This document shows positions 5,533 to 42,184 of a DNA stretch of 64,000 nucleotides, one piece after another (position 1 is the stretch's first letter; the number at the start of each line of letters is the position of its first letter). A program made the position numbers and the translations under genes. The notes below the pieces were generated by a model. The model was not told the DNA's origin and ran no database searches. It was given only the letters and a program-made list of their open reading frames with translations. This DNA is from an uncultured delta proteobacterium (GTDB taxonomy: Bacteria; Desulfobacterota; WTBG01), in NCBI GenBank assembly GCA_963793865.1, contig CAWCBP010000002.1, positions 1 to 64,000 on the forward strand, in the 5' to 3' direction.

Positions 5533-6147
5533 ATGCATTGCTCTAACATCGTGAAATCATTTTTTAACATGGCAATGATTATCAGCACACTGTTAAGTGC
5601 TTCGATTGTGTCTGCCGCCCCCCCGGACGGCAAGACACTTATCGTGTGCTCTTCTTATACGGGGAATACCAGGGTTGCCTGTGAAGCTATTCAAAAGAGT
5701 CTGGGGGCCACGGTTCTGGAATTGAAGGACGTAAAGAACCCTCCGGAAAATTTAAAAATGGAAAAGGATGCGAAGCCCAAATGGGTTCTGGACACAGAGA
5801 TAGAACCAAAAAGCGCAGACCTTGCGTCCAGCGACTGCATTGTCCTCGGCTCACCAATCTGGATGGCAACGCTCGCTCCCGCCATGCGCAAATTCATCGA
5901 GCTGAACAGATTCGATGGTAAAAAGATCATACTTTTAACCACCACCAACGCATCGTTAAATGAGGAGCAGCGACAGAAGATTAAAAGCCTGGTCACGGCC
6001 AAGGGAGGAACGGTGGTGGGGTACTACGAAATTCTGGCACAGGAAAAGGTACAGGAAAAGAAAGTAGAAAAGACAAAGGAGCAGATTAAAGCGGAAGCCT
6101 TAAAAATAGCGCCTGAAATAAGCAAAGCCTTTGCTGCGGGCAAATGA
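5533..6147 (+). CDS. Exported flavodoxin-like protein (paralogue 1)
   Basis: AGGAGG RBS, signal-peptide-like N-terminus, SYTGNT, LGSPIW and NRFDGKK motifs. Confidence 0.75.
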   Translation: MHCSNIVKSFFNMAMIISTLLSASIVSAAPPDGKTLIVCSSYTGNTRVACEAIQKSLGATVLELKDVKNPPENLKMEKDAKPKWVLDTEIEPKSADLASSDCIVLGSPIWMATLAPAMRKFIELNRFDGKKIILLTTTNASLNEEQRQKIKSLVTAKGGTVVGYYEILAQEKVQEKKVEKTKEQIKAEALKIAPEISKAFAAGK

Positions 6148-6195
6148 ACCTCGAAAGGAATATTTCCCGGGAAACCGCCTGCACCGCAGTGCGGC

Positions 6196-7320
6196 TCATG
6201 ATATTTCCTCAACCATTGCCGCAACATATTTTCCTATAGCCGGAGACGAGGTAAGCCCGGGAGATTCGATGCCGACAAGATTAATGAAATTCTCAAGGCC
6301 GCGATCCGCTTCATGCCTGACTATGAAATCCTTCATGGGTTCCCCCTCTTTCTGAACTTTGGGATGAATGCCCGCTATGTCAGGATTGATCTGTTCCATT
6401 TTCAGAAATGGCAGAAATGATACCGTGGAGCGGTAAAAATAGTCGCGCAGCGATTCGTCAACCGTATAGTCTATTTTGTCAACCCATACGTCGTAGGGCC
6501 CCAGGCGCATCCCCCCGCCGAGATCGGGGGTGGTGTGTATGCCCACAAAGCCCGGCCACGGCGGCACAGGATAGATGAGCATTGTGGGAAACCGGCTGAT
6601 GCTGCCGCTCACCCGGAAGTACATCCCCTTGCAGTAGCTGATCCGGTAGCCTGCCTCATCAACATCTATGCCCAGCATCGCCGACACGTTCCCCGACTCG
6701 AGCCCCGCGCAATTTATCAAGATCCTGGTCCGGAACTCATAATCCCTGCCGGCCGTGTCGTTCACCCGCACGAGGTATCCGCCGCCTTTCTTCTCCACCG
6801 CCCTCACTTCGGTGTTGTAGACGACGGCTGGCGCCTCCCTCGATGGCAGACCGCTCATAGTATTGCATCAGGCTATGGGAATCCACAATCCCTGACGTGG
6901 GACAGAGGATCGCTGCCCGCGCGGACACCTTCGGCTCTTGGATTCTCATTTCCTCCCCGCCGATGATGCCACGCCTTTAGCCCCGTTGTTCCGTGCGGTT
7001 TGGAGCAGCTGCGGCAGCTGTTCCTCATCCTGTTCACTCACGGCAACAATCAGCTTCCCGGTCCTGCGGTGAGGGATGTTGTGCCGTTCGCACAGCTCAT
7101 ACATCAGCTCATTTCCCTCCAGGCAGAATCTGCCCTTCAGCGAGTTCTGCGGGTAATAAATGCTCGCGTGAATCACCTCGCTGTTCCTGCTTGATGTCTC
7201 CTGCCCGAAAGAGGCATGCCTTTCAATCAGGACCACGTTTCTGCTGCCGTTGGCAACGCAGGAGGCAACGGAAAGCCCAACCGCCCCTGCCCCTATTATG
7301 GTTACATCCGCTTGTTCCAT
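6196..7320 (-). CDS. FAD-dependent oxidoreductase, LhgO/L-2-hydroxyglutarate dehydrogenase-like; split by two frameshifts
   Basis: GAGAVG, ETSSRNSEVIHA, PTSGIVDSH, INCAGL and GIESPGLTSSPAIG motifs are spread over three overlapping ORFs (6946-7320, 6737-6949, 6196-6858). Confidence 0.8.
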
Positions 7321-7392
7321 TACCTATCCTGGATTGAAGTTACGGGTCAGCCTTAAAACAGTTTGTGACGTCAGGCTAGCATCCTGACATCA

Positions 7393-8489
7393 CTAGACAT
7401 GCGTGGGAATCATGCTTGTGCCCGATTTCATGCGGTCCCGCATGGTACCGGCGTTGTAGCCGCTTGCCTTTAGTTTTATCAGGTATGCTTTAAAGGTATC
7501 ATTTCCATACGGAGGCGAAAAGTGGCTGACAACTGACCAGTATTTTGCGGCTTCCAGGTAAAAAGCCATCCGCTTAAACATGGGAGCACCATACTGATAG
7601 CCTTCATGATCTTGATCCGCCGCTCCCAGGATTCCATGGATACAACCGTAAATTTCTCCGGCTTGCCCAGCACCTCGAACAGCAGCTCATTGGCCCGCCT
7701 TAGAGTACAAATATTGTCTTCCACCCATGGCCCGCCCACCGGAAAGATTCTTCCGTAATTATTCTCATTAAAAAGCAGGTTGACAATGAACTCAGAGAGG
7801 TTTTCCCGTGAAATGGGGTTGCTCACCGCCCACTCGCCGTGATCAAAAATACGGCAGGGCCTGTCGTTCTGCACTTCGCTGAAATTGATGGCCAGGTGCG
7901 GGTAATAGGAGGTGGGCCGCACAATCGAATAATTTACCGGCCCGTGAAAATGGCCGATGAGTTCCCCTTCAACCTGGAGTTTGTAGACCTGGGGCAGTAG
8001 TTCCGGGCGGTAGCAGCCGCTATCGGAGATATGAATGAAATGTTTCAGGCCCCTTCCTGCCCCTGCCTGAATGGCGTTAACATTGGACCGGTAATCAACC
8101 CGCCGGCACTCCTCTTCATCATTGGGTCGGCGGCTGCTTAAAAGGGTTATGACCGCTTCCACCGGAAAGGCATCAAAGACCTTCTCAACATCCGCCTTTT
8201 GACTCACCTCCCCTATGACAACCTCAGCGTGCGGATACGTTTCCTGAGCCTGCGCGTGCCGTGCAAGCAGCACCGGTTTATAACCGCGCTGCGCCAGTTC
8301 GGGAACCAGCGCCCTGCCGATATAGCCCGTGCCGCCCAGCACCAAAACGTGCTGCCCGCTGCCCTGACCCACCTTGCCGGTTGTATAGGTAGTATCCTTG
8401 GTTGCAAGCGCTTTGGTAATAAGCAACCTGACTTTCGCCTGTTCCTCATCCTTTCGTTTGTGAAGCTCCTGGATTGTGCTGTAAGCCAT
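7393..8489 (-). CDS. BciA/DVR-like divinyl (chlorophyllide) 8-vinyl reductase homologue (atypical SDR); one frameshift near 7582
   Basis: GGTGYIG, LSSR, VDYRSN, YSIVRPT, IFDHG..SNPIS and PVGGP match DVR as recalled. The C-terminal KYW..PPYGNDT lies in ORF 7393-7581. Confidence 0.7.
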
Positions 8490-8622: not shown

Positions 8623-9249
8623 TCATTGGTGCGGAACTGCTGAAAATAACCCCTTTATCTCCGGCACAAGGGCGACGGTATCCCTGATGATCTGTTCTTT
8701 CGCACGTTCTATCTTTTTCCCATCGACTTCTTCTTTGGCAAGGATCTGGTAATAGCCGACCACATCACCACCGGCTTTTCGCACCAGGTTCTTGCCCTTC
8801 TCCTTGTACTTCTCTTTTTCAAAGGCGTTGGTGGTGGTATAAATGATCACCTTTTTCCCGTCAAACCGGTTCCGGTCAATGAACGTGCGAATGGCCATGC
8901 TCAGCTTGCCGGTCCAGATGGGAGATCCAAGTATTATATTTTGATACCCGGTGATCTCAATTTTTTCAGGTTCAATCTTGGTATGTTTACCGACAAGCGA
9001 GCCTATAGCTGTTTTAAAAAAGCCCCACTTGCCTGATCGCTTCCTCAAATCCTTTATTTCCATAATATCAGCACCAAGCTCCTTCTGCAATGCCTCACAA
9101 CCTGCCTTCGTGTTCCCGGTAAGAGAATAATATACGATGAGGGTTTTCCCGCAGGCCGGTTCCTCGGCCGGCAAAGAAGAGGCGTTACAACAAACCAGAC
9201 AAAGCGATACGAGCGCCACTGCTACGCATGTGAAAAGCCGATGTTTCAT
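8623..9249 (-). CDS. Exported flavodoxin-like protein (paralogue 2)
   Basis: Signal peptide, YYSLTGNT, LGSPIW and NRFDGKK motifs. Confidence 0.8.
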   Translation of the reverse strand: MKHRLFTCVAVALVSLCLVCCNASSLPAEEPACGKTLIVYYSLTGNTKAGCEALQKELGADIMEIKDLRKRSGKWGFFKTAIGSLVGKHTKIEPEKIEITGYQNIILGSPIWTGKLSMAIRTFIDRNRFDGKKVIIYTTTNAFEKEKYKEKGKNLVRKAGGDVVGYYQILAKEEVDGKKIERAKEQIIRDTVALVPEIKGLFSAVPHQ

Positions 9250-9475: not shown

Positions 9476-9715
9476 TTACTTGGGGGTCATGAGCGGTTCA
9501 ATGCTTTTTAACGCCATGGCGATAAAAGGCTTGGGGGTAATCTCCTTTACCACTTCAACTACCATATCCTCGGTTACCGCCCCCGCATCACCTGCTTTTT
9601 TCCCCAGTCCCTCCAGCATCTTTTTTTCCGTCATTGCCCTGAAGGGTTTCGGGGAACCTTCCAATAACTTTTGAAACATTTCCTTGCTTTTCCCCTGCCA
9701 GTTAAGTTCCGCCAT
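9476..9715 (-). CDS. Small helical protein, PCP_red (BchB C-terminal)/DUF2621-like
   Basis: LNW...PKPFR...VTEDMV pattern, duplicated PKPF motif, GGAGGAG RBS. Confidence 0.55.
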   Translation of the reverse strand: MAELNWQGKSKEMFQKLLEGSPKPFRAMTEKKMLEGLGKKAGDAGAVTEDMVVEVVKEITPKPFIAMALKSIEPLMTPK

Positions 9716-9826: not shown

Positions 9827-10492
9827 TCATGATAATTTTTCCTGTACATACTCGACACACTGCAATGTCTGATCGATGAGTTGATCATCCGTTTTTGCCT
9901 GTGTTTCAAAATGATAGTGTCCAATAAAATCTCCTCCCGCGTTAATGACTTCGCCCACCGCCGCTTTTCTTTTGTCTCTCAGGTAGTCCTTTAAATATCG
10001 TTTTATAAAGGGTGCCTCCTCACCGAATTGTTCATACTTCATGATGTGGATATTGGCTGTGGTAATCAGTATAAGTTTCTTGCCGTCAAACCTGTTGCGT
10101 TCGAACAGGGTGTGAATGGGCGTACTGACATTCCAGCTCCAAATGGGGGTGGCAATGATAACCGCCGAATAAGGGGTTAGATCAGGATTTTCCGGTTCAA
10201 TGGGGGTATGTATATGGCGAAAGGCATCGAGTCCCGAGGCAATGAATCCCCACCACCCCGAGCGGTCTTTCGGATCCTTGATTTCCAAGATATCCGCGCC
10301 GATGTTGTTAGCCAGGGTCTCGCTGATGAGCTTTGTTTTTCCTGATCTTGAATAATGTATTATCAGCGTTTTTGCAGCCCCCCGCTCTTCGGGGAAGGCA
10401 CTGGAAGAAATCTGAACTGAAAAAGCCAGCACAAAACAACAGCAGAGTTTAAACAGGTTTTGCTTGCCGAGGAATAGGTACCTTGTCATCAT
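9827..10492 (-). CDS. Exported flavodoxin-like protein (paralogue 3)
   Basis: Signal peptide, YSRSGKT, ATPIW and NRFDGKK motifs. Confidence 0.8.
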   Translation of the reverse strand: MMTRYLFLGKQNLFKLCCCFVLAFSVQISSSAFPEERGAAKTLIIHYSRSGKTKLISETLANNIGADILEIKDPKDRSGWWGFIASGLDAFRHIHTPIEPENPDLTPYSAVIIATPIWSWNVSTPIHTLFERNRFDGKKLILITTANIHIMKYEQFGEEAPFIKRYLKDYLRDKRKAAVGEVINAGGDFIGHYHFETQAKTDDQLIDQTLQCVEYVQEKLS

Positions 10493-10589
10493 ATATATTC
10501 TCCCATGGGCAATGCACCGCTTAACGGTACATGTTCCAGAAATAGCAATCACATGATTATGGTACAGAAAGCTGGAATCGTGCGGGAGA

Positions 10590-11024: not shown

Positions 11025-11939
11025 CTAGCGATCTAAATCTATATCCTTCCAGGAAGCGGGATCATTAAGCGACTCCAAGTGAGTAAAAACTGTCACGTTT
11101 GGCAACGCCTGGCAAATGCATGATTCTATTTTTTCCAACAGATCATGCCCATCCTGGACTGTCCATACCCCGGGAACCAGTACATGCAGGGATACAAAGC
11201 GGCGCCTTCCCGACTGGCGAGTTCGAATTGCGTGGCATTCAACCCCATTTTGCATATACGGCTCCAGCACTTTTCTCAAGGTGTCCCGGTCTTCAGAAGG
11301 CAGGGCAGCATCCATTAACCCCGATACCGACTTATACACAATCCGCCCGCCTGACCAGACGATGTTGGCGGCAACCATAATCGCAATAACCGGATCCAGC
11401 CGCTGCCAACCGGTCACTGCTACTGCACCGATTCCCGCCACCACTCCCGCTGATGTCCATACATCAGTCAGCAAATGCTTTGCATTGGCCTCGAGTGTTA
11501 TGGAATGGTACTGCCTGCCTGCCCGTAACAATAAGAGGGCGACAAACAGGTTCACCAGGGAGGCCGCTATCGATACCCCCATTCCCAGCCCGACCTGTTC
11601 CAGCTGTTTGGGGGTAATGAGCCGATGAACGGCTGCCGCGCCAATGCCAATTGCCGCAATGAGAATCAACGTGCCTTCGACGCCGCTCGAAAAGTATTCC
11701 GCCTTGCTGTGTCCATAGGCATGGTTCTCATCGGCCGGGCGCGAAGCTATGGTCAACATCGCCAGTGCCATCAGCGCCCCAGCAAGGTTGACGAAGGACT
11801 CCAGAACGTCGGAAAGCAGTCCGACCGAACCCGTAACCAGGTATGCGACGGCCTTGAGGGCAATGGTAATAATGGCCGCGGCAATCGAAAACCAGGCAAA
11901 GCTTGCAAGCGATGAACGGTTTGTGGTATTTGATGTCAT
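11025..11939 (-). CDS. Cation diffusion facilitator (FieF-like) transporter
   Basis: GSVGLLSD, HAYGHSKAEY, HLLTDVWTS and THLE motifs; about six TM segments. Confidence 0.92.
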   Translation of the reverse strand: MTSNTTNRSSLASFAWFSIAAAIITIALKAVAYLVTGSVGLLSDVLESFVNLAGALMALAMLTIASRPADENHAYGHSKAEYFSSGVEGTLILIAAIGIGAAAVHRLITPKQLEQVGLGMGVSIAASLVNLFVALLLLRAGRQYHSITLEANAKHLLTDVWTSAGVVAGIGAVAVTGWQRLDPVIAIMVAANIVWSGGRIVYKSVSGLMDAALPSEDRDTLRKVLEPYMQNGVECHAIRTRQSGRRRFVSLHVLVPGVWTVQDGHDLLEKIESCICQALPNVTVFTHLESLNDPASWKDIDLDR

Positions 11940-11995
11940 GGTATTCAGTGTAGCACGACAGGCACAGCAGCTCAACACAATTAAACCGGACGGCA

Positions 11996-13705
11996 ATGTT
12001 TCTCCCCACGACGCGCGAAGAGATGGATGAGCTGGGCTGGGATAGGCCCGATATCATCCTGGTGACCGGAGACAGCTACATCGACAGCCCGTTCATTGGT
12101 GTCGCCCTGATCGGCAGGGTGCTCCAGCACGCCGGGTACCGGGTGGGCATTATTGCCCAGCCTGATGCGCAGAGTCACCGGGACATTTCCCGGCTGGGGG
12201 AACCAGGGCTGTTCTGGGGCGTATCGGGCGGCAGCATCGACTCCATGGTGGCCAACTACACCGCCCTGAAGAAAAAAAGAAAAACGGACGACTACACCCC
12301 CGGCGGAATCAATGACCGCCGTCCGGACCGGGCCGCCATCGTTTACAGCAACCTCATCAGGCGCTACTTCAAAAACACCCGGCCCATCGTGCTGGGCGGC
12401 ATCGAGGCCAGCCTGCGGCGCATTGCCCATTACGACTTCTGGTCTGACCGGGTCCGCGCCTCCATCCTGTTTGACGCCAAGGCAGACTTCCTCCTGTACG
12501 GAATGGCCGAAAAAGCTGCCGTCAACCTTGCCGATGCCCTCCGCGCGGGCAGCGATGCGCGTGGCATTCGCGGCCTCTGTTACATAGCCCATGAAAGCGA
12601 TGTTGTCGGCATGAGAAGCAGCTTTCATGAACTGCCGCCATATGAGACTGCTGCCGGAGACAAGCAGGCCTTTATCGACATGTTCCACACCTTCTATCAA
12701 AACTGCGATCCCGTCACCGCAAAAGGTCTCTTGCAGAGACACGGCACACGCTACCTGGTGCAGAACCCGCCCTGCCCCCACCCCGCCCAGGCTGAGCTTG
12801 ATGCAATCTATGCGCTTGATTTTGAGCGGGACCAGCATCCCTATTATCAGAAGCAGGGTGACGTGCGGGCGCTGGAAACGATACGCTTCTCGGTCTCCAC
12901 CCATCGCGGCTGTTACGGGGAGTGCAACTTCTGCTCCATCGCCGTGCACGAGGGCAGGCGGATTCTGTGGCGCAGCCATCAATCCATCCTGGCCGAGGTA
13001 AAGCGTCTCACCCGTCACCCTGATTTCAAGGGTTATATACCGGACGTGGGCGGGCCGACGGCCAACATGTACGGGATTGAATGCGAACGAAAGATGTCGC
13101 ATGGCAATTGTCCCGCAAAACGCTGCCTCTATCCGGTGGTATGCCCCTCCCTTAAGGCCGATCACCGGCGGCAGCTGCAGCTGCTGAACAAAATCCGGCG
13201 CGTCAAAGGTGTGAAAAAGGTCTTCGTGGCCTCGGGTATCCGCTATGATCTGCTGCTGGCCGACCGTGCATACGGCAGGGAGTGCGTGCGGCAGCTGATC
13301 GAGCACCATGTCTCAGGGCAGATGAAGGTGGCGCCGGAGCACAGCGAGGAGACTGTTCTGAAGATGATGGGAAAACCCGGCACTGCTGCACTGGTGGAAT
13401 TCAGGGAGCTGTTCAACCGCATCTCCCTGGCCGCCGGCAAAGAGCGCTACCTCACCTATTATCTGATTGCCGCGCACCCCGGCTGCAGCGAAAACCATAT
13501 GCGGCAGCTCAAGCAGTTTACCGACCGCGTGCTCAGGATCAATCCGGAGCAGGTTCAAATCTTCACCCCCACGCCATCCACCTACTCCAGCCTCATGTAT
13601 TATACGGAGACTGATCCTTTTACCGGCATGCCCGTCTTTGTTGAAAAAGACCCCCGGGGGAAAACCAGGCAGAAGAATATTGTAATCCGGAAGCGCAGGA
13701 TGTAA
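11996..13705 (+). CDS. YgiQ/UPF0313-family radical SAM protein
   Basis: FLPTTREEM, GDSYIDSP, CYGECNFC (CxxxCxxC) and VQIFTPTP motifs. Confidence 0.92.
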   Translation: MFLPTTREEMDELGWDRPDIILVTGDSYIDSPFIGVALIGRVLQHAGYRVGIIAQPDAQSHRDISRLGEPGLFWGVSGGSIDSMVANYTALKKKRKTDDYTPGGINDRRPDRAAIVYSNLIRRYFKNTRPIVLGGIEASLRRIAHYDFWSDRVRASILFDAKADFLLYGMAEKAAVNLADALRAGSDARGIRGLCYIAHESDVVGMRSSFHELPPYETAAGDKQAFIDMFHTFYQNCDPVTAKGLLQRHGTRYLVQNPPCPHPAQAELDAIYALDFERDQHPYYQKQGDVRALETIRFSVSTHRGCYGECNFCSIAVHEGRRILWRSHQSILAEVKRLTRHPDFKGYIPDVGGPTANMYGIECERKMSHGNCPAKRCLYPVVCPSLKADHRRQLQLLNKIRRVKGVKKVFVASGIRYDLLLADRAYGRECVRQLIEHHVSGQMKVAPEHSEETVLKMMGKPGTAALVEFRELFNRISLAAGKERYLTYYLIAAHPGCSENHMRQLKQFTDRVLRINPEQVQIFTPTPSTYSSLMYYTETDPFTGMPVFVEKDPRGKTRQKNIVIRKRRM

Positions 13706-13758
13706 AGTATGCAGGTGCGATAGAGGCATGAAGCATTACGCTCAGGAGAAAACCCCTC

Positions 13759-17065: not shown

Positions 17066-17187
17066 CGAAATCTAAAACAGTTCTGGCTGGATTGAGGGTT
17101 GTTAAAAAAGTTGCCAAACGGGTTTTATTGCTGTATTTTGTCAAACAAATGCTCTTTGTGGTACATATCTTTGAGAGGAGGACCGGT

Positions 17188-17835: not shown

Positions 17836-17876
17836 TAATCACCGGGGTCACATAACAAATGAGGTAAAGGTGCGCT

Positions 17877-18602: not shown

Positions 18603-18693
18603 ACCTGATAACGAATGGTTTTGGAAGGCCTCTTATTGGACTTGCTGCCGTTCCGGAGGGTCATGCGGCACAGATGAGTAGATGATGTAGGTA

Positions 18694-19131
18694 TTACCCC
18701 TGACCCCTCCTCGCGATCATGCGCTTGTAAATCCACTGGGCAAAATTTATAAAATAAACCATGGAAGCAAAAAGCATGCTCGCGGCCAGCCGGTTGCGAT
18801 CCCACCCCTGCCAGATCCCAATAAAATAGATGATGTATGAAAGAATGGCCGCAAGATTGCCGACATCCTGCCAGAAAAATTCCCGGCACATGAAGTATTT
18901 ATTGCAAAACTGCTTCTCCCAGAGGATGCCGATAACCGTATTAAGCCAGAGCAGCGCGAAATTGACCCAGAAGGTTATCAGCGCAGGCATCCATCCCTCG
19001 CCTGCGGTCAGAAAACGCAGCACATAATAAAAGTTCAGCAGCAGTATTAACAGCTGGATCCCGCCTATGACCATCATCGCACGGGCCAGGGGTGACGAAT
19101 TGCGGCGGCTCAGTTCTTCCGCGGTATACAT
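18694..19131 (-). CDS. BchF-like 3-vinyl (bacterio)chlorophyllide hydratase homologue
   Basis: YTAEELSRRNSS, VLRFLTAGEG, GILWEK, FFWQDV and YFINFAQW match BchF as recalled (YT.E...RR..S, GAIWEK, FFWEDV, Y.INA.Q). GGGAGG RBS. Confidence 0.8.
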   Translation of the reverse strand: MYTAEELSRRNSSPLARAMMVIGGIQLLILLLNFYYVLRFLTAGEGWMPALITFWVNFALLWLNTVIGILWEKQFCNKYFMCREFFWQDVGNLAAILSYIIYFIGIWQGWDRNRLAASMLFASMVYFINFAQWIYKRMIARRGQG

Positions 19132-19250
19132 AAGCACCTCCCTCAACTATTTCTCCAGTCCACGCTGTTCAGATATGCCGGCGTCATCAGTCATGCCAAT
19201 CTGTTTTTTCAACGCGCTCAATTGAAAAAAACGAATCTTCCGCACGGCAG

Positions 19251-19270
19251 ATATAGTAAATGTATGTATA
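19251..19270. promoter_or_regulatory. Putative MarR operator upstream of the bchF-like gene
   Basis: ATATAGTAAATGTATGTATA, 17/20 identical to 42676-42695 upstream of the paralogous marR. Confidence 0.45.
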
Positions 19271-19578
19271 TTAATCATCAGGCAGCTAAAATTCAAGCAA
19301 AAAATAAAACACTTGTTGATGGCGTATGACTGCTGCTTCTCAATAACGGTCCTTTCCCGCGGAATACGCGTCAAAACACCATTTCATTTTTCACTAAAAT
19401 ATGTGGTGGTAGTGCATATATATTCAGCTCTCCCATACCATCAGATTCATTACCGCCGTTCATGCAAATATCATTTTATTTCGGATAACTACAGCGTCAA
19501 TAAAATGATTGACAAGGAACAGAATATTAGTTAATTAATGTGTACTATTATTCCATCTCACCGGCACGCAACAATCAT

Positions 19579-20076
19579 ATGAATGAGTTGGCACTAAAAA
19601 ACATAACACGGCGCAAGGCTGAAAAAGCTGATTTTGACAGGATTTCCCACCAGGTTTACATCAACCTCCAGAAAATCTTTCGCTGCCTGAATATCGGCCG
19701 GGGACTGCAGGGAAAGCGGCTGCCGATCACCATGACCCAAATGCGCGTCCTTTCCCTGTTTAATGAGCGGGACATCATCAGCATCACTGACATCAGCCGC
19801 TCGCTGGGGATGTCGCTGCAAAGCGCCACCAACCTGGTATGCCGGCTTGAGCAGCTTGATTACCTGGAGCGGACTAAAAATGAAAAGGATAAACGGGTTT
19901 CGGATGTAAAGCTTACTGCCAGGGGCAAAAAGCGTCAGGACATGTTCAGGAATGGTGAGATTGAAACGGTACGATTGCTCCTGGAACGACTGAATACGGT
20001 GGAAAGCAGGGTTTTAAATGAAACACTCAATGGTGTTGCCCTTCTTTTTGAAAAGGCAAGCAGCGCCTCTTCATAA
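19579..20076 (+). CDS. MarR-family regulator
   Basis: TMTQMRVL and wHTH with DKR..DVKLT..G. TTGACA at 19509-19514. Confidence 0.9.
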   Translation: MNELALKNITRRKAEKADFDRISHQVYINLQKIFRCLNIGRGLQGKRLPITMTQMRVLSLFNERDIISITDISRSLGMSLQSATNLVCRLEQLDYLERTKNEKDKRVSDVKLTARGKKRQDMFRNGEIETVRLLLERLNTVESRVLNETLNGVALLFEKASSASS

Positions 20077-20119
20077 CCGCACATAGAAATCACAGCAAAC
20101 AGCACAGGGGAGTTGCGCA

Positions 20120-20896
20120 ATGAAACAGGTGAAAGGACTGGGAGGCTGGGTACGCAGTGCCATCTGGCTGGAACTGGTTATTCCCGGGTATTTTTTCGGT
20201 AAAACCTTCGGCACCGCGGACGCAAAATACCGTTTCCTTGATCAGTTCATGTATCCCACGCTGTTTATCAAGATCTGCGGATATTTCCGGGATCTTCCGG
20301 TTGGCTATTATACAGGAAGGTTTTTAGGAGTTCTTGCAGGTGCCATGATCGGAGTACTGTGGGTGCTGCTCATCGGGGTTTTTTATAAATGGGTGCTCAA
20401 GGACTGGTCATACTCAAAGGCGACACGCATCGGCGCGCTGGCTTTTATCCTCATTGCGCTCATGACCGGCTTCATGTCAGACATGTTTAACGAAAGCATC
20501 GGCATGGGGCTGCGCATCGACGAGGATGCGCCCAAGGAACTGGTGGGCAAGAGTCTGGTTCAGGATTACGGCTCATTTGTAAAGGGCACCATGATCACAG
20601 AGGAAAATGCCGGGCTGCTTGCCGCCTACGGCAAGGTCAGGGCCAACAACGAAGCCGGTGCTCATCGCTGGTGGGTGGCTTCACTGATATTCATGTATTC
20701 CTGGTTTGTTCTCTATTTCATCTGCGCCCACCGTTTTTTCAAACGCAACCTGGTGCCCCGGGAGTCTTATTTCAAGCTGCAGATGATCAATCTTGCCGCG
20801 ATTATCATCTATTTGAGAATGGGCTTTGGCATTGCTCCGGCGGAATATCATTATATTGTAACCAGGTTCCAGTACCTGTTTGGAGGAGGAATGTAA
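20120..20896 (+). CDS. Multi-pass membrane protein of unknown function
   Basis: About five TM segments; sits 1 bp before the next gene's start. Confidence 0.7.
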   Translation: MKQVKGLGGWVRSAIWLELVIPGYFFGKTFGTADAKYRFLDQFMYPTLFIKICGYFRDLPVGYYTGRFLGVLAGAMIGVLWVLLIGVFYKWVLKDWSYSKATRIGALAFILIALMTGFMSDMFNESIGMGLRIDEDAPKELVGKSLVQDYGSFVKGTMITEENAGLLAAYGKVRANNEAGAHRWWVASLIFMYSWFVLYFICAHRFFKRNLVPRESYFKLQMINLAAIIIYLRMGFGIAPAEYHYIVTRFQYLFGGGM

Positions 20897-20897
20897 T

Positions 20898-22490
20898 ATG
20901 GCTTGGTCCGGCTTTACCCGCGAGGAATTTGTACGACATGTGAGAAATATGGCGCTCCTGGGGCTGATTTTGTACCTCGGTGGGATACTGACCGGTTATG
21001 TAATTAACTGGGTGTGCCTGATGCTGGGACTGTGCGCGCTGACGCTTTTTTTCACCGACTTTTTCTACGGCAGAACACAGGGTGCCGCATACTTCTGGTT
21101 TTTTGTTTTCATCTACGGCATGGGCAACTATAAACCCTTCCGGTTCCCGGTCAACGCGGAGGCATGGAAGCTTCAGACCAATGACATGATTGACTGGATT
21201 GTCGGCGGGAAGGGCACCATGATGTTTCCCCGGGCTGACTGGGTGATGCTGACCCCGCTGCTTGCCTACACCCTCTACATTGCCATCAGGCTTTTGAAAA
21301 CACCGCCCGACCCCGTAGCCCGGGCCCGCAAGACAGTGGCCACAAAAAAATGGCGCATGTTCACCCAGACCTTTGTGCTGGTGTGGTATTTTGAGATCTT
21401 TGCTGACGGCATGACCGCCCGCCCCATCGAAAACCCGGAACTGCTCTTCTGGGCGCTGGCCATGCTGCTGGGCTCGCTCCTGCTGCCCTTTTTTATCGGA
21501 CGCTGGTTCTGCGGCTGGTTCTGCCCGGTCGGAGCCCTGCAGGACGGCATACTGAAACATTTCAAGAATTACCAGGGCATTAAGATCAGCGATTCATTCC
21601 GCGCCCTGATCAACCGCATTTATGTGCCCGCCCTTATGGTGGGCATGATTATTGTGGTCTATACCTTTGAACGGGTCTTCCAGCTTGCCTCTTCCGCCGA
21701 GATGATCCGCTCGCCTGACTGGAAAAATCTCTGGAAGCCGATGGTGTGGACAAAAATACTCACCAACGGCATGTTCCTGGGATCGATCCTGTTCGCCTAC
21801 CGGGTGTACTGCCGCTACTTCTGCTGGTATATCGGCTACCGGGTAACACTGGGACACCCGTCCCTCTACCGGGTGCCGTTTAAAACCGATCGCTGCCAGA
21901 TCTGCCCTGAATGTCCGCCCGAGGAACACTGCACCATGGGCTACCAGTTCCAGTCGCAGCCCGAAGGGGAGGAACAGCTTTCCATCAGAAATATCGGCGA
22001 GGCGCCGGTTACCTGCACCCTCTGCTATGAATGCCGGGACACCTGCCCCCATGGCGTATTCCGGGGCAAAATCAAGCGCATCAACGTCATCCCCGAGCGC
22101 TGCGTGGGCTGCCGGCTCTGCGAGCTTGCCTGCTCAGGAAGCCGTCTCGGGGTCTTCGATCCGACCCGTGCAAATATCACCGTAGAAATGGAGGGGATTC
22201 CCGAACTCCCGGTGCCGAAAATCAAGGACACCTGCGATGCCTGCAACGGCGACCCCGCGTGTATCAAGGTCTGTCCGGCACGGGTGATCATCTGGGACAA
22301 GGACGGTGTCCGCAAGGGCATAAAAATCAAACGGCCGGGAGCGCTGCGCAAATTTGTGCGAAGGCTGAATCCCTTTTCCGGAACGCCGGCTGTCTGCGAT
22401 AACCTCTGCGGCGCGTATCCCCAGGGGTGCCCGACCTGCGACCAAAACAAATCGCTGAAGCACGAGGATGCCAAAGGAGTCGCTGCATGA
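20898..22490 (+). CDS. Membrane polyferredoxin (NapH/MauN/RdxA-like) fused to a 4Fe-4S dicluster domain
   Basis: GRWFCGWFCPVG, YCRYFC and several CxxCxxCxxxC(P) motifs. Confidence 0.85.
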   Translation: MAWSGFTREEFVRHVRNMALLGLILYLGGILTGYVINWVCLMLGLCALTLFFTDFFYGRTQGAAYFWFFVFIYGMGNYKPFRFPVNAEAWKLQTNDMIDWIVGGKGTMMFPRADWVMLTPLLAYTLYIAIRLLKTPPDPVARARKTVATKKWRMFTQTFVLVWYFEIFADGMTARPIENPELLFWALAMLLGSLLLPFFIGRWFCGWFCPVGALQDGILKHFKNYQGIKISDSFRALINRIYVPALMVGMIIVVYTFERVFQLASSAEMIRSPDWKNLWKPMVWTKILTNGMFLGSILFAYRVYCRYFCWYIGYRVTLGHPSLYRVPFKTDRCQICPECPPEEHCTMGYQFQSQPEGEEQLSIRNIGEAPVTCTLCYECRDTCPHGVFRGKIKRINVIPERCVGCRLCELACSGSRLGVFDPTRANITVEMEGIPELPVPKIKDTCDACNGDPACIKVCPARVIIWDKDGVRKGIKIKRPGALRKFVRRLNPFSGTPAVCDNLCGAYPQGCPTCDQNKSLKHEDAKGVAA

Positions 22491-24366
22491 GCAGAGCAAT
22501 GCTGTATAAAGGATACACAAGAAAAATCCTGCGGGTGAACCTTACCGCCGGATCGGTAACGCCCGAGGAGCTCCCCAACGGTCAGCTCAGGAAATACGTC
22601 GGCGGCGCGGGCCTTGCTGCCCGGATGCTGTATGATGAGCTCCCGCCGGGCATTGACCCCCTCTCCCCGGCTAACAAGGTGCTTTTTCTTGCGGGACCGC
22701 TTGCGGGCACCATGGCCCCCACCGGCAGCCGCATCGGTGTGTACACCAAGTCCCCTCTCACCAACGGCTTCTTTCACTCCTCCGCCGGCGGGCACTTCGC
22801 GCCCGAGCTTAAATATGCCGGCTACGATGGGGTGATGATCGAGGGGGTGAGCGCCACCCCGGCGTATCTCTATGTTGATAATCAGCGCGCTGAGCTTCGC
22901 GATGCCGCGCGCGTCTGGGGGGAGCGGACCGACGCAACCCAGCACTGGCTGAAGCGGGATATCGGCGATGAGGCGGCGCAGCTTGCCGTCATCGGGCCGG
23001 CCGGGGAGCGGCTGGTGCGATTTGCCAACATTGTGGTCGGATGCCGGGCGCTGGGCAGGGGGGAATCGGCGCCGTGCTCGGCTCAAAAAAGTTTAAGGGG
23101 CTCGCGGTGCGGGGAACGGGCAAGCTTGAAGTGCATGACATGCCGGGGACGCTCAAGCTTTCCCGCGAGATTTGCTGGATCATGCGCAGCCATCCCGCCA
23201 CGGGGCAGGTGCTGCCTGCTTTCGGCACACCGGTGCTGGTGGATGCCAATAACAGCCTGGGCGTGTTCGGCTCGCGCAACTGGCAGCGGGAAACCTTCGA
23301 GGGCGCGGAGGGCTTAAGCGCCGAGACCATGCGCCGGAAGATCGTGGTGCGGGACAAATCCTGCTTCGCCTGCCCCATCAAATGCGGCAAATACAGCGTG
23401 GTGGTCTCCACCCCCTTTGAAGGCCGCACGGTGGAAGGCCCTGAATACGAGAACATCTTCGCCCTGGGATCCATGTGCGGCATTGATTCCATAGAAGCGG
23501 TGGCGGCGGCGGAGCGCGAGTGCGACGACCTGGGAATGGACGCCATTGAAACCGGCGTAAGCATAGCCTTTGCCATGGAGAATTTTGAAAAGGGCAATCT
23601 GACCGCCGCGGACACCGGGGGCATGGAACTCACCTTCGGCAACACGGAACTGCTGCTTCCCCTGATTCACAAAATCGGCATGCGCGAGGGCATCGGCTCC
23701 CTGCTGGCGGAGGGCGTCAAGCGGGCCGCCGTGAAAATCGGCAAGGGCTCGGCGGATTTTGCCATGCAGAACAAGGGCATGACCTTTGCGGGACACTCCG
23801 CGCGCGGGCTGCCCGGGTTCGCCCTCGGCTACGCGACCGGCCCCCGCGGCGGTTCCCACCACGACAGCAGGCCCACGGGAGAGCGCACCGGCATGCTGCC
23901 CCGGGACACCATCGACGGCAAGGCGGCTTACACGGTTAAAGTGAACCATCTCATGATCCTGACCGACTCAATGATCCTCTGCCATCTTGCGGAATCCATC
24001 TGGGGCCCCATCGAGATCAACCCGGTGGTGGTGGACATTCTGAACACCGTAACCGGCATGGAGATGACCGTGGCGGAGGCGGAGATCACCGCGGAGCGCA
24101 TCTGGAATGTGATGCGCGCGTTTGCGGCGCGGGAAGGACTGCGCCGGGAAGACGACTCGCTGCCCAAGCGTTTCCTCACCGAACCCATCCCCGACGGCCC
24201 TTCAAAGGGCATGGTCATCACCCCGGAAATGCTTGAGAAGATGAAAGACGAGTACTACCAGCTGCGCGGGTGGGACAGGGAGACCGGGATCCCCACACCG
24301 CAGCAGCTGCTGAAGCTCGACCTTCCTGATATTGCTGAAGACATGAAAAAGATACTGGGCCAGTAA
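22487..24366 (+). CDS. Aldehyde:ferredoxin oxidoreductase (W/Mo AOR family); frameshift in the G-run at 23058-23063
   Basis: KSPLT, GG.FAPELKYAGYD, IGPAGE, GRGG.GAVLGSK, CFACPIKC, EGPEYE and DDLGMD motifs across ORFs 22427-23317 and 23041-24366. Confidence 0.9.
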
Positions 24367-24384
24367 AAGGAGAGGTGATACAAG

Positions 24385-25857
24385 ATGAGCCGTGTTAAAT
24401 TCTGGACTTTAATTTCCCTTGCGGTAGTGCTTTCCATCAGCGTCTCAGCGGCTTTATCAAACAAGCAGGATGATCAAAACTACCGCCATGACTATGTCTA
24501 TCAGGACACGAGCCTGGCGGGGAAGCCGGGTATCCTTATCACCGCCCTGGGGCAGCCGGAAGAATACGATTTTAATTTCTTCAATCGCTACATCAGCATG
24601 ATCTTCCGGACCGCATTCCCGCCGGCACTCAAGCTTATCATCATGCAGGACAAGGGGACCGTGCTCATGGATCCGGAGCATCTGGAAGCCGCTGAAGAGT
24701 ATCAGCCAAAAGCACTCATGGACTGTCTTGGCAAAACCGCGGATGAAGAAGGGGAGCCTTATGTGGACCTTAAAGATCTCGAATGGGTGCCTTCACGGGA
24801 CGGCGAGTCGCCCGGCCATTTTCTGCTGCCGGGGAAAAACGGTTACATAGACGCGGTTGAGAAGGTCGGTGTTAAAATCGCCGCTTCATATTATCCCAAG
24901 ATGCCCGGGAAAAAGGTCCCCTACACCCGGCAGCATCTTGAGATTATCAATGAAGTCGGGGCCATGCTCAAACAGGCATTTCCCGATGTCCCCATGCGCT
25001 GGGGCTGGACCATGGAGCCGGAAACGGTTGAAACAGCGGTTGACCAACTGATTGTGGAAGACAAGGTCAAGACCATTGTACACTGCGATATATTCCCCGT
25101 TTATTCCTCCCTCGAGCACTTCAACACCCTGTACCAGGACGTGAAAGATGCGGTCGCGGAACGGGCCAAGGTAATCTTCACTCCCTGCCCGGGGGCTTAT
25201 CCGTCATTTCGGAAAGGCATCGAATTGATGGCAACGGATGAAGTGCTCTCCCTGCCAAAGGAAGACCGCAAGCTTCTGGTGCTCACACGACACGGCTGGC
25301 CGGACATCAAGGGAGACCCCTACCCGGAACTCGGCAGGGTGTATTACTGGAACCTGAAATCAGAAATAGAAAAAGCCATCGAGGGAACCAATACCCTGGT
25401 CGTGTACGCGGATACGGATTTTGCCGGGGATGCCGACGATCCCAAGCATAAGCGGCTGGCAAGTTTTGAAGCCCTGGAACTGGGCCTTGAGGAAAAATAC
25501 GATCACATCATCTTTCAGATGGTCGATTTTACCAGCGAGAACACTGACACCATCTTCGCAATGCGTCTTGAAACCTTTGAGCCGCTTCATTTTGAATATG
25601 GAGAACAGGTGCCGTACACGGACTGGTCAAAACCATTCAGAACCGAGCTCAAGGGAGGAAGGGATTTTCACTACACGCTGAAAGAGGGAAACGGGGAGAG
25701 CGCGGCCCGGGTGGTGGTGCTCGGCGTGCCGGTCGGCCCGCGCTACCGGCCGCACATATCCCGGGGACTCTTTGATTCCATCGCCACGGTTCTGAAGGGA
25801 GAAACGTGGCCGCAGCTGGTGCTCGAGGAAAAAGTGGAGAAAAAGGGCATGTTTTAA
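24385..25857 (+). CDS. Exported ferrochelatase-like (class II chelatase fold) protein
   Basis: Signal peptide. GILITALGQP, PVYSS, LVLTRHGWP..GDPYP and DFTSENTDTI align with HemH motifs. Confidence 0.65.
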   Translation: MSRVKFWTLISLAVVLSISVSAALSNKQDDQNYRHDYVYQDTSLAGKPGILITALGQPEEYDFNFFNRYISMIFRTAFPPALKLIIMQDKGTVLMDPEHLEAAEEYQPKALMDCLGKTADEEGEPYVDLKDLEWVPSRDGESPGHFLLPGKNGYIDAVEKVGVKIAASYYPKMPGKKVPYTRQHLEIINEVGAMLKQAFPDVPMRWGWTMEPETVETAVDQLIVEDKVKTIVHCDIFPVYSSLEHFNTLYQDVKDAVAERAKVIFTPCPGAYPSFRKGIELMATDEVLSLPKEDRKLLVLTRHGWPDIKGDPYPELGRVYYWNLKSEIEKAIEGTNTLVVYADTDFAGDADDPKHKRLASFEALELGLEEKYDHIIFQMVDFTSENTDTIFAMRLETFEPLHFEYGEQVPYTDWSKPFRTELKGGRDFHYTLKEGNGESAARVVVLGVPVGPRYRPHISRGLFDSIATVLKGETWPQLVLEEKVEKKGMF

Positions 25858-25878
25858 CCGGTGGAGCAACCCAATTAT

Positions 25879-26212
25879 CTAGTGTAGTGCGTCCAACACT
25901 TCTTTACTTATGAAAGGCTTCTGTGTGTTGCGAATACCATGCTGTAGAGGAGGTTCAGTGGCTCAAAGGGGAGGGGCTTTTGACGCCACAACAATGTGTC
26001 TTTAGGCTTACGGCACGAGCCGGTGCCTTACGACTTAAACCGAGACAGGCAGCTATACAGAGACTTCGATACGGCTGTTACTATGCGGGTCTGTCGGACA
26101 AAGTTAGAGAGATGCTGCCGTTCTACAGGTTCCGAATAATTTTGTTGTGGCTAAAAAGCCCCTGCCCCTTGAGCCACATATAAATAAAGTAATCAATAAC
26201 GCACTACACTAG
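25879..26212. mobile_element. MITE / non-autonomous element, IS630-like (CTAG ends)
   Basis: Perfect 14 bp terminal inverted repeat CTAGTGTAGTGCGT, a second internal inverted repeat (about 25958-25993 vs 26143-26177), and no transposase. Confidence 0.75.
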
Positions 26213-26258
26213 GTAGGGGTCACAAACATACATCAACACAAGAGCAGGAGGAGAGCCT

Positions 26259-26867
26259 ATGAAGAGCCCGCGCAAACTATTTCTGATGCTGGTTATTGCC
26301 GCCCTCGTTTTCATCACGCCATTGGCGCGTGCCCAGGAAGTCGCCGCGGATGATATTCTCATCTTCTACTATTCGCGCACCGGGAATACCAGAATGGCCT
26401 GCGAGGCGCTGCAGAAGGAACTCAACGCCCGGCTGATTGAGATCAAAGATCTCACTGACCGCTCGGGAGCGTGGGGCGGGCTCACCGGCATGCTCAATAC
26501 CCTTTTCAACATGGAAACCGGCATCGATCCCGAACACCCTGACCTTTCGGCCGGCACCAGCATCATACTGGCGTCCCCTCTGTGGGCGGGAAAGCTTGCT
26601 CCGGCAATTCGCACGCTGATTGCGCGCAATAAATTTGACGGCAAGAAGGTAATCATTTTTACCACCGGCAATGCCATCCTGGATGAAAAGAACCAGGAGA
26701 AAAACAAGGCGCCGGTTACCGCTGCCGGCGGCGAGGTTGTCGATTATCTGCAGGTCGCGGTCCAGGAAAAGGTAAATGATGAGAAGGTGGACAGGCCGAA
26801 GGAAAAGGTTCTGGAGGATACCATAAAATTGGTGCCCGGGATTAAAAAGTCGTTTTCGCTGCCGTAA
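26259..26867 (+). CDS. Exported flavodoxin-like protein (paralogue 4)
   Basis: Signal peptide ending ARA, YYSRTGNT, LASPLW and NKFDGKK motifs. Confidence 0.82.
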   Translation: MKSPRKLFLMLVIAALVFITPLARAQEVAADDILIFYYSRTGNTRMACEALQKELNARLIEIKDLTDRSGAWGGLTGMLNTLFNMETGIDPEHPDLSAGTSIILASPLWAGKLAPAIRTLIARNKFDGKKVIIFTTGNAILDEKNQEKNKAPVTAAGGEVVDYLQVAVQEKVNDEKVDRPKEKVLEDTIKLVPGIKKSFSLP

Positions 26868-42175: not shown

Positions 42176-42184
42176 TCCTCCACT

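Follow-up and report, generated by a model that had tools for sequence, protein, structure and literature searches.

A conserved operon for an aldehyde oxidoreductase, an exported protein of predicted ferrochelatase fold and exported flavodoxins in a non-phototrophic lineage of Desulfobacterota

We analyzed a stretch of 64,000 nucleotides (the window; C2:1-64000, contig CAWCBP010000002.1) from the genome of an uncultured delta proteobacterium of the Desulfobacterota lineage WTBG01 (GCA_963793865.1, here G000). Between positions 5533 and 26867, a first-pass annotation, made from the letters alone, had proposed a cluster for the anaerobic modification or breakdown of tetrapyrroles (chlorophyll, haem or bilins) and had taken the whole 21 kb as one pathway. 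The conserved unit is an operon at 19540–26867 that encodes a MarR-family regulator, an orphan membrane protein (mem258), a NapH-like Fe-S protein, an aldehyde oxidoreductase (AOR), an exported chelatase-like protein and one or more exported flavodoxins, and it covers only about one third of the 21 kb. The earlier interpretation is thus partly supported in theme and wrong in extent: an exported ferrochelatase-fold protein and a BchF-like protein are encoded here in a non-phototroph, and relatives add HCAR/BciB-family and BchH-type proteins.

A conserved operon around an AOR gene

The source genome (3.85 Mb, 14 contigs, completeness 98.6%, contamination 3.0%) was compared with G001–G041, giving a class sample of 42 species genomes; loci and contigs fetched from relatives and metagenomes carry L numbers. 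Genes were taken from a listing of open reading frames (ORFs), and families were assigned by Pfam and NCBIfam scans with the family cut-offs. For synteny, the window proteins were mapped onto 22 fetched regions around chelatase-like genes. An AOR gene lies directly upstream of the chelatase-like gene in 16 of these regions, from 16 other genomes of families f1, f2, f3 and f5. A MarR gene is seen upstream in 12 of the 16 orthologous operons, the other four ending at contig ends, and in 15 of them the chelatase-like gene is followed by one to four genes for exported flavodoxins. In the window, the genes of the operon overlap or are separated by at most 43 nt, except at one inserted repeat; to the right lies a PAS hybrid kinase gene in convergent orientation. 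Because the core genes have been rearranged and yet are still linked in two genera, their linkage goes beyond chance. The core operon is lineage-restricted and assembled from known kinds of enzymes.

The most conserved component is mem258, with a mean column identity of 80% across 11 orthologues. It matched no Pfam or NCBIfam family. A search of 1.84 billion representative proteins gave 24 matches at E≤0.001, including a single close relative that matches over its full length; by this measure it appears nearly unique to the lineage. Its structure model (pLDDT 53) was too poor for a fold search. The adjoining Fe-S protein matches several Fer4 families besides PF12801, is placed in the NapH/MauN subfamily at E 5e-8, and is 65–89% identical across the orthologous operons.

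The AOR matches both AFOR domains (Table 1). An intact orthologue in L015 is closest to the AOR of P. furiosus (1aor, 458 bits) and scores 224 bits against BamB (4z3w), so that the operon enzyme is predicted to be a cytoplasmic AOR sensu stricto and a dearomatizing role of the BamB type is unlikely. A rough count of tblastn matches gives about 25 AOR-family loci in the 3.85-Mb genome, including C1:19774-24612, C1:438033-442803, C8:458838-463696 and C14:334962-336833. Some adjoin FDBR-like genes (ferredoxin-dependent bilin reductase; C1:440025-440603) or flavodoxins (C8:519150-519677).

The last gene of the operon encodes a signal peptide followed by the FMN loop YYSRTGNT of a flavodoxin. Among 23 flavodoxin ORFs beside the operon at nine loci, 22 have a signal-peptide-like start and the remaining one has a truncated start; most keep the loop as YYS(R/L)TGNT, and six have a degenerate loop. 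A gene for an OprB-family porin follows the exported flavodoxins in L108 (G017) and L030 (G003), which suggests, from gene order, that the substrate may enter through the outer membrane.

A parallel drawn by the first-pass annotation is bilQ-bilR-bilS, the locus of gut bilirubin reductase, where an anaerobic tetrapyrrole reductase is reportedly accompanied by a regulator of the MarR type and a protein resembling flavodoxin. The MarR of the operon scores 30.5 bits against the BilQ model (NF045593), whose cut-off is 125, and is therefore an analogue and not a member of that system (BilR and BilS were not searched for); the flavodoxins here are, moreover, exported. A MarR paralogue, 42% identical to that of the operon, adjoins a gene for a DUF3108-like protein at 40829–42658 of the window. 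The interval between the BchF-like and MarR genes (19147–19374) shows translated conservation of 57–73% in six metagenome contigs and may hold divergent promoters and a MarR operator, or a small ORF.

The exported ferrochelatase-fold protein

The chelatase-like protein is about 470–490 residues long, and its family is present in 32 of the 42 class genomes. The window protein scores just under the cut-off of the ferrochelatase family PF00762 (Table 1), the orthologues and the members of a second clade score 38–43 bits, and among paralogues of 30% identity one reaches 22 bits and another has no match. A precomputed PF00762 match is recorded for 83 of the 91 homologues listed. PDB searches with the sequence and with a profile gave no match. 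The AlphaFold model, made from 24 sequences, has a pLDDT of 82.9 and a pTM of 0.83. Its Foldseek matches in the PDB, as listed through rank 44, are exclusively ferrochelatases, from B. subtilis, L. monocytogenes, yeast and human (best E 3.5e-10, probability 1.00, target TM 0.61–0.74); they are followed by the periplasmic CbiK of D. vulgaris and then by SirB. The model predicts that the exported protein has the two-lobed class II chelatase fold and is nearest to the ferrochelatases (HemH/CpfC) rather than to CbiK.

In an hhalign comparison with four genuine HemH from Chloroflexota genomes (probability 60%, E 8.5e-5, 198 columns), the invariant His303 (LTRHGWP) falls on the catalytic histidine of ferrochelatase (SAHSLP), and the GDPYP motif of ferrochelatase is retained and invariant in the family. 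The His-x-Glu motif corresponds to Asn386-x-Asp388, with the invariant Asp388 in place of the catalytic glutamate. A signal peptide or lipobox is present in the window protein and in all 21 relatives examined. The location of the protein, exported and encoded in a MarR/AOR operon rather than a hem operon, is unlike that of the cytoplasmic or inner-leaflet ferrochelatase of haem synthesis. The first-pass call of an exported ferrochelatase-like protein is thus borne out by its signal peptide and its Foldseek matches.

A second clade, 47–53% identical, accounts for the six of the 22 mapped regions that have no AOR. Its neighbors are transport genes (RND, MacB-type ABC, ABC-3 and MntP). The paralogues of 30% identity adjoin FDBR-like genes in all three mapped loci (L210–L212), pairs of them in two and a single gene in the third, and these loci also hold genes for a thiolase, a FabG-like short-chain dehydrogenase/reductase (SDR), an FAD/CCG oxidase, and PNPOx-like proteins or hydrolases. 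The chelatase-like and FDBR-like folds are thus linked at the level of the family, not within the window.

The BchF-like protein

The gene divergent from the MarR operon encodes a BchF-like membrane protein (vinyl hydratase family), as first annotated. It lies far above the PF07284 cut-off (88 bits, cut-off 25) and below that of the NCBIfam equivalog TIGR02020 (68.3 bits, cut-off 101.35); G021, one of the basal members of the class, exceeds the latter with 128.1. The gene is single-copy in G000, and PF07284 is found at 12 places in 11 of the 42 class genomes. In five of these places, in two genera, it adjoins the operon in differing arrangements, divergent from MarR in G000, G036 and G038 and downstream of the operon in G002 and G003. 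Neighbors elsewhere include AOR paralogues (G021 and G015), a lipase-like gene (G017), a carboxylesterase gene (G007) and a flavodoxin gene (G005). In L013, FeoB is encoded 3.7 kb from the BchF-like and flavodoxin genes. The membrane protein next to the BchF-like protein in the window, mem241, belongs to no family and is a possible partner; it is 83–95% identical and BchF-adjacent in L010, L011 and four metagenome contigs, and has one paralogue in G000, near another AOR gene.

A BchF tree of 126 rows was made by a quick IQ-TREE search, with three plasmid-borne proteobacterial genes annotated as bchF as its root; Chlorobi, Acidobacteria and most Proteobacteria are either missing from it or carry no label. 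In this tree, 29 sequences from the class and from metagenomes form one group (SH-aLRT 87), which lies within a clade of 88 rows of the Chloroflexota type (98). Across 97 other BchF sequences, 31 columns are conserved at 90% or more. The basal class members keep 26 of these, and the window subclade and the HCAR-linked subclade 18 each. The window protein retains Glu77, the motif E89-F-F-W-x-D94, Tyr131, Asn134 and Gln137, whereas Trp20, Gln24, Lys62 and Thr72 are replaced. To our knowledge, there is no structure or map of catalytic residues for BchF.

No neighborhood of bch genes was found for the BchF-like gene, which is flanked by MarR/AOR genes and genes for membrane proteins without an assigned family. 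A passage of Cardona (2016; PMC4783071) describes BchF as exclusive to producers of bacteriochlorophyll a, in which it lies beside bch genes. The class genomes with BchF-like genes are exceptions to this exclusivity. The nesting of their clade within Chloroflexota-type BchF suggests transfer, and isolated bacteriochlorophyll genes are described as common in non-phototroph genomes (“gene shrapnel”) in PMC8262859, a caution that applies to the BchF-like genes of the class. It is nevertheless extremely improbable that the pigment-type genes are relics of transfer from phototrophs that have no coherent function and came to adjoin the AOR operon by chance. Intact BchF-like frames are found in the 11 class genomes that have the gene and in 19 full-length matches from 20 metagenome contigs. 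The central motif of acidic and aromatic residues is conserved, two genera keep the gene linked to the operon despite rearrangement, and the order of the neighboring genes is fixed in several contigs, as described below.

Chlorophyll-type enzymes in relatives

In G002 and G003, a gene for an HCAR/BciB-like protein (405–419 residues, FrhB family) lies between the flavodoxin and BchF-like genes. Over residues 24–415 of 419, the protein from L015 matches Arabidopsis HCAR (5dqr; 7-hydroxymethyl chlorophyll a reductase) at E 2.7e-74, the next-best match being the F420 hydrogenase beta subunit FrhB at E 1.5e-15. HCAR and BciB are indistinguishable by this comparison. Five of the 16 genomes have the gene after the operon, and it is present in 14 of the 42 class genomes. 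It is directly upstream of the BchF-like gene in 5 of the 20 metagenome contigs, in one of which a chelatase-like gene lies upstream. The order HCAR-like, BchF-like, flavodoxin, flavodoxin recurs in L141, L143 and L145; L138 shows one flavodoxin after the BchF-like gene before the contig ends, and L144 stops right after the BchF-like gene. The HCAR/BciB-like gene is absent from G000 (no match at E≤1e-20). Relocation within that genome was rejected, as its two PF04432 matches are unrelated (best 23% identity).

A second conserved cluster, seen in families f3/f5 at L119, L120, L121 and L124 (G021, G019, G030 and G020, respectively), encodes a TetR regulator, a Flavodoxin_5 protein that is HemG-like over its full length, a PNPOx_N-like protein, a classical SDR and an HCAR/BciB-like protein. 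In G030, an AOR gene follows this cluster. The order of SDR and then HCAR parallels the plant route from chlorophyll b to a, and one ESM Atlas cluster neighboring the classical SDR is auto-named NYC1, a weak indication.

In G014 (L106), the operon is followed by a second MarR gene, a DsbD_2 membrane protein gene and, at 15503–19411, a gene for a BchH-type chelatase of 1302 residues, which scores 1038 bits against the BchH equivalog (cut-off 829). BchH-type genes occur in 20 of the 42 class genomes, with 15 above the cut-off, and none is found in G000. Across the class, chelatase-like and FDBR-like genes are each found in 32 of the 42 genomes, followed by BchH-type (20), HCAR-like (14) and BchF-like (11) genes; none of the five is present in family f4 (0/8) or in f6. 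The distributions of the chelatase-like and FDBR-like families nearly coincide.

Phototrophy genes and tetrapyrrole synthesis

The first-pass annotation had noted that phototrophy and haem oxygenase genes were missing from the window, and this holds for the whole, nearly complete genome. In G000, we found no Photo_RC, CobN/BchH, haem oxygenase, canonical ferrochelatase, PsaA/PsaB or BchM. Photo_RC, PsaA/PsaB and BchM are each absent from all 42 class genomes (BchD/I, BchXYZ, BchC and BchG were not searched for), and BchB of the dark-operative protochlorophyllide oxidoreductase (DPOR) has no match above its cut-off in any of them. Hidden phototrophy is thereby rejected for G000 and for the class, and the organism is non-phototrophic. 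Paired nitrogenase/DPOR-like genes are present in G000 at C14:240031-242473 and C6:10159-12576, with BchB scores of 70–130 bits against a cut-off of 490, and similar genes occur in 23 of the 42 class genomes. Two FDBR-like genes (C14:247506-250059) lie at a distance of about 5 kb from the C14 pair.

G000 encodes HemB and HemC and makes its own tetrapyrroles; salvage by a tetrapyrrole auxotroph is therefore rejected. This synthetic capacity, together with the lack of a canonical ferrochelatase, the apparent retention of the catalytic histidine in the chelatase-fold protein and the frequency of BchH-type chelatases in the class, would also suit an organism that makes or matures a modified tetrapyrrole cofactor of its own, for example a haem or chlorin whose vinyl groups have been hydrated or reduced, and metallates it in the periplasm for the many periplasmic redox proteins of these bacteria, with no processing of environmental pigments. 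We regard this as distinctly unlikely. The accessory genes are patchy in the class, and the BchH and HCAR-like genes are missing from G000. MarR and TetR regulators are typical of substrate-induced catabolic or detoxifying operons. Esterase or lipase genes adjoin the BchF-like gene in two contexts, porin genes follow the flavodoxins in two, and the operon includes no cofactor-dependent client protein.

Gene layout and the remainder of the 21 kb

The genes of the stretch were found at or close to the positions first assigned to them (Table 1), and the earlier observation is confirmed in part. Pfam and NCBIfam scans agree with the four flavodoxins, all with signal peptides, and with the CrtI-like, CDF (cation diffusion facilitator), MarR, Fe-S membrane and AOR proteins.

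Table 1. Features encoded at 5395–26867 of the window, with strand and family evidence
Feature	Position	Strand	Remarks
Exported flavodoxin	5395–6147	+	Left block
LhgO-like FAD enzyme	6196–7320	-	Left block; frame broken in two
Extended SDR, DVR(BciA)-like	7479–8489	-	Singleton; NAD_binding_10 61 bits; putative member of the system
Exported flavodoxin	8623–9249	-	Left block
79-residue protein	9476–9715	-	Below DUF2621 cut-off; no PCP_red match
Exported flavodoxin	9827–10552	-	Left block
CDF (MntE-like) transporter	11025–11996	-	Pfam/NCBIfam; genus-level neighbor only
YgiQ radical-SAM protein	11996–13705	+	Genus-level neighbor only
FDBR-like protein	13759–14463	+	PF05996 38.7 bits (cut-off 31); not a conserved operon member
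163-residue protein			No assigned family; between the FDBR-like and CrtI-like genes
CrtI-like FAD enzyme	15166–16782	-	Genus-level neighbor only
Two proteins	17008–18602	+	No assigned family; the second is mem241
mem241, membrane protein	17877–18602	+	No family; adjoins BchF-like gene, possible partner
BchF-like membrane protein	18694–19146	-	Vinyl hydratase family; PF07284 88 bits; divergent from MarR operon
MarR-family regulator	19540–20076	+	Operon gene 1; PF01047 45 bits
Polytopic membrane protein mem258	20120–20896	+	Orphan; no Pfam/NCBIfam family
Membrane Fe-S protein (NapH-like)	20880–22490	+	NapH/NosR-type Fer4_5 region and C-terminal polyferredoxin; PF12801 46 bits
Tungsten-type AOR	22487–24366	+	Split in assembly; AFOR_N 212, AFOR_C 415 bits
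Exported protein, predicted ferrochelatase (class II chelatase) fold	24385–25857	+	Signal peptide; model; PF00762 26.1 bits (cut-off 27)
Inserted multi-copy repeat	25906–26186	.	Outside the system; tblastn copies and read depth
Exported flavodoxin	26259–26867	+	Last operon gene; Flavodoxin_5/3/4 matches

Two genes are broken in the assembly. The AOR occupies two frames, with the break at 23032–23083; contigs of all four runs compared (three DNA and one RNA-library) carry one additional G after 23057, in a G-run. The frameshift is therefore an assembly error and the gene is intact in nature, which rules out a pseudogene. The LhgO-like gene, whose presence agrees with the first annotation, has its middle segment in another frame through two indels within 6858–6946. 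The repeat between the chelatase-like and flavodoxin genes is about 280 bp long (an ORF of 86 residues within it is an artefact), has 14 tblastn matches on six contigs, and is covered at a depth of 2278 in run X1, against about 15 for its flanks. One relative's contig connects 25862 to 26290 through 55 other letters. The repeat is probably a small mobile or repeat element. Contigs from one RNA-library run (X18), in which DNA may be present and which as contigs are no evidence of transcription, match 21759–22048, 22975–23313 and 26703–26930 at 90–99% likeness. Directly left of the 21 kb, at 2719–5450, lies an SOS-type cassette for a UmuC-like polymerase (IMS), a LexA-like S24 peptidase and a SRAP protein.

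The FDBR-like protein is above the PF05996 cut-off, in agreement with its first annotation. The single sequence has no match in the PDB, whereas a profile of the protein and its relatives gives 17, all to FDBRs (HY2, PcyA, PebA and PebS; best HY2 6kmd, E 3.8e-15). G000 has 14 PF05996 matches, 11 of them above the cut-off, and each of the 32 class genomes with the family has 6–22. The expectation for any given 21 kb is about 8% (14 × 21 kb/3848 kb), and the presence of an FDBR-like gene here is therefore unremarkable and not beyond chance. Orthologues of the window protein in seven other genomes (61–72% identity) stand apart from the core genes and from its window neighbors; near them are only an AOR paralogue (two loci), a DAO-like gene and a weak, 30% CrtI-like match. 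As a possible partner of the FDBR-like protein, haem oxygenase (PF01126) has no match in G000; ChuW-type ring-opening enzymes were not searched for. G015 has an FDBR-like gene 6 kb beyond the operon.

The SDR had been called a BciA/DVR-like reductase (divinyl reductase) at 7393–8489; its ORF runs from 7479 to 8489. In Pfam and NCBIfam, it matches only the generic NAD_binding_10 and epimerase families, and the best PDB matches are generic epimerases, with BLVRB at 24 bits. Its nearest ESM Atlas clusters are auto-named divinyl chlorophyllide 8-vinyl reductase (0.99, 235 of 256 features). The likeness to DVR is thus one of language-model features, a lead and not a test. No orthologue was found in the 41 other class genomes (best 35% identity). 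The 79-residue protein had been called PCP_red/DUF2621-like, an identity that fails: it scores 17.3 bits against DUF2621 (cut-off 27.7) and does not match PCP_red even at E≤5. In L089, a domain 50% identical to it is fused in a DUF3108-like protein, two genes from the BchF-like gene.

The order CDF, YgiQ, FDBR-like, 163-residue protein, CrtI-like, two unassigned proteins, BchF-like and MarR is common to L010/G036 and L011/G038, which are of the same genus. In other families, the CDF, YgiQ, FDBR-like, 163-residue and CrtI-like genes are not beside BchF or the operon. As L010, the closest relative, diverges beyond CDF, the block of flavodoxins and SDR is not shared. A single pathway across 5533–26867, in which the SDR, PCP_red-like, FDBR-like, CrtI-like, BchF-like and chelatase-like proteins act in sequence on one pigment, has in its favor the nearness of the genes within 21 kb, the Atlas neighbors of the SDR, the related domain in L089 and the FDBR-like gene in G015. 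It is very improbable and, by the synteny, largely refuted. Against it stand the synteny confined to one genus, the separate FDBR orthologues, the singleton SDR and the failed PCP_red/DUF2621 call; the stretch, moreover, uses both strands and comprises five or more transcription units, YgiQ and CDF being interposed.

Proposed function

Starting from the families and folds of the parts, their export signals, the conservation of the operon, its links to chlorophyll-type enzymes and the missing phototrophy genes, we infer the scheme below, with its substrate, all its catalytic steps and the direction in which the electrons flow. The operon may serve the periplasmic metallation or demetallation, and the vinyl remodeling, of scavenged tetrapyrroles such as haem and chlorophyll derivatives, a reading that we favor tentatively and that falls a little short of probable. 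The exported chelatase-fold protein would bind the macrocycle in the periplasm and remove or exchange its metal, and the exported FMN flavodoxins would provide the reducing step needed for dechelation. Electrons from the oxidation of aldehydes by the AOR would pass to the polyferredoxin/NapH-like protein and mem258 and on to the flavodoxins, possibly via menaquinone. The BchF-like protein would hydrate vinyl side chains, which in relatives an HCAR/BciB-family enzyme would also reduce, and the MarR protein would sense the pigment.

Several findings weigh against this scheme. We know of no role for AOR in tetrapyrrole chemistry, and the AOR-family loci of G000 are so numerous that a chance adjacency becomes likelier. 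The chelatase-like protein finds no PDB match by sequence or profile, its alignment with HemH has a probability of only 60%, and it has Asn-x-Asp in place of the His-x-Glu with the catalytic Glu. The transport genes beside its second clade mean that metal handling fits as well as pigment handling. The BchF-like protein falls below its equivalog cut-off, its subclade has lost 13 of the 31 conserved columns (including W20L, Q24M and K62N), and its gene, found in no more than 11 of the 42 genomes and next to the operon in 5 of its 12 places, is an accessory. The strongest links to chlorophyll are those of relatives, because G000 itself lacks the HCAR/BciB-like gene and BchH/CobN, and the BchH model also matches in non-phototroph control genomes. 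With HemB and HemC of its own, the organism is not forced to salvage. The scheme is drawn from sequences and a structure model. In addition, FetB, an exported chelatase of P. gingivalis, is reported in part of PMC13065792 to lack the reverse (dechelatase) activity on haemin.

Some of these points also count for the main rival, a periplasm-directed redox or metal-handling system with a substrate other than a tetrapyrrole. There, the AOR would oxidize aldehydes from fermentation or aromatic breakdown and pass the electrons through the Fe-S protein to the exported flavodoxins. The chelatase-fold protein would bind or insert metals in the periplasm, or bind another planar or acidic ligand, and the BchF-, HCAR- and FDBR-like proteins would have been recruited to quinones, humic aromatics or polyenes. 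The AOR is a bona fide broad-type enzyme, and the roughly 25 AOR-family loci and 14 FDBR-like matches suggest that reductases have expanded in general. The window also holds a CDF/MntE-like gene at a distance of 8 kb, MntP, ABC-3, RND and MacB-type genes accompany the second chelatase-like clade, and the modules of FDBR pairs, with their thiolase, FabG-like SDR and FAD/CCG oxidase, resemble lipid or acid metabolism; the diverged BchF subclade points the same way. We nevertheless consider such a system somewhat unlikely, since one class holds up to five families whose characterized members act only on tetrapyrroles, with recurrent linkage among them, the chelatase-like family has an invariant GDPYP and an invariant His aligned with the catalytic one of ferrochelatase, and the HCAR match is full-length and far above those to F420 enzymes.

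The preferred scheme of periplasmic metal exchange and vinyl remodeling can be widened to the class, whose members would be anaerobes of sediment and soil that perform an enzymatic version of the early diagenesis of chlorophyll and haem. Detrital pigments would enter the periplasm and be demetallated or transmetallated by the flavodoxin-driven ferrochelatase-fold enzyme; BciB/HCAR-like, BchF-like and SDR enzymes would reduce or hydrate their vinyl and formyl groups; and the 6–22 FDBR-like paralogues per genome would reduce them further. Oxidations of the AOR type would give the electrons, and the tetrapyrroles would serve as electron sinks (“tetrapyrrole respiration”) or as nutrients. We consider this wider proposal unlikely as it stands.

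Comparison with known systems

The system belongs to none that has been described; in its working, it is closest to the exported chelatases and periplasmic dechelatases of anaerobes, combined with the side-chain chemistry of chlorophyll. In the main texts of a collection of open-access papers, we found no description of an operon that combines an AOR, an exported ferrochelatase-fold protein and an exported flavodoxin, nor of BchF-like or HCAR/BciB-like genes in non-phototrophic metagenome-assembled genomes of the Thermodesulfobacteriota type.

FetB/IhtB of P. gingivalis (PDB 9B86) is described in part of PMC13065792 as an exported CbiK-like protein that inserts Mn or Co into porphyrins. With it and with the periplasmic CbiK of D. 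vulgaris (2xvx and 2xvz), the protein studied here would share the class II chelatase fold, and it likewise has a signal peptide and an anaerobic host. It differs in length (about 470–490 residues, compared to about 270–300), in having ferrochelatases as its nearest predicted fold, and in its operon of AOR, Fe-S protein and flavodoxin. For B. fragilis, parts of PMC6460266 report a periplasmic, iron-regulated haem dechelatase activity, the enzyme being called “unidentified”; the ring is kept, protoporphyrin IX and the vinyl-modified meso- and deuteroporphyrin are released, and the CobN-like BtuS1/BtuS2 and FeoAB are involved. The outline is similar here, with a BchH-type gene by the operon in G014 and FeoB near the BchF-like gene in L013. 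However, G000 has no CobN/BchH, phylum and habitat differ, and neither an AOR nor an exported flavodoxin figures in those parts of the B. fragilis description.

Likeness to the side-chain enzymes of chlorophyll (BchF, BciB or F-DVR, HCAR, NYC1/NOL and BciA) lies in the Pfam match of the BchF-like protein, the full-length HCAR match of relatives and the SDR–HCAR order of families f3/f5. In contrast to those pathways, there is no BchM, reaction centre or above-cut-off BchB here, the BchF subclade is divergent, G000 has no HCAR/BciB-like gene, and the neighbors are an AOR and exported proteins instead of bch genes. The FDBR-like proteins resemble pre-PcyA and RCCR-like FDBRs in that they, too, are FDBR-family proteins of non-photosynthetic bacteria. 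According to Rockwell et al. (2023; PMC10151467), the described pre-PcyA clusters of heterotrophs include genes for a haem oxygenase and for V4R, Fe-S and globin (BBAG) proteins. Here, G000 has no haem oxygenase, there are 6–22 FDBR-like matches in each genome with the family, and the neighbors encode SDR, thiolase, FAD/CCG oxidase or chelatase-like proteins.

Implications

Each kind of enzyme found here was already known; what the analysis adds is the operon, its links to the BchF-like and HCAR/BciB-like genes and the class-wide pattern. Sec-exported FMN flavodoxins themselves appear little described in the open-access literature. The operon provides cloneable candidate genes for the anaerobic removal of metal from haem and for the conversion of the vinyl groups of protoporphyrin to the meso and deutero forms. 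The intact BchF-like clade comes from a class whose 42 genomes all lack a reaction centre, which alters how BchF can serve as a marker. Which organisms act on chlorophyll and haem in anoxic sediments, and so decide their fate, is poorly established, and a class that combines FDBR-like, chelatase-like, BchH-type, HCAR/BciB-like and BchF-like proteins is a natural place to seek them. The loss of Mg, the reduction of vinyl to ethyl groups and the exchange of metals in the Treibs scheme are usually treated as abiotic; if the class does carry out an enzymatic diagenesis of these pigments, such steps would have a biological origin.

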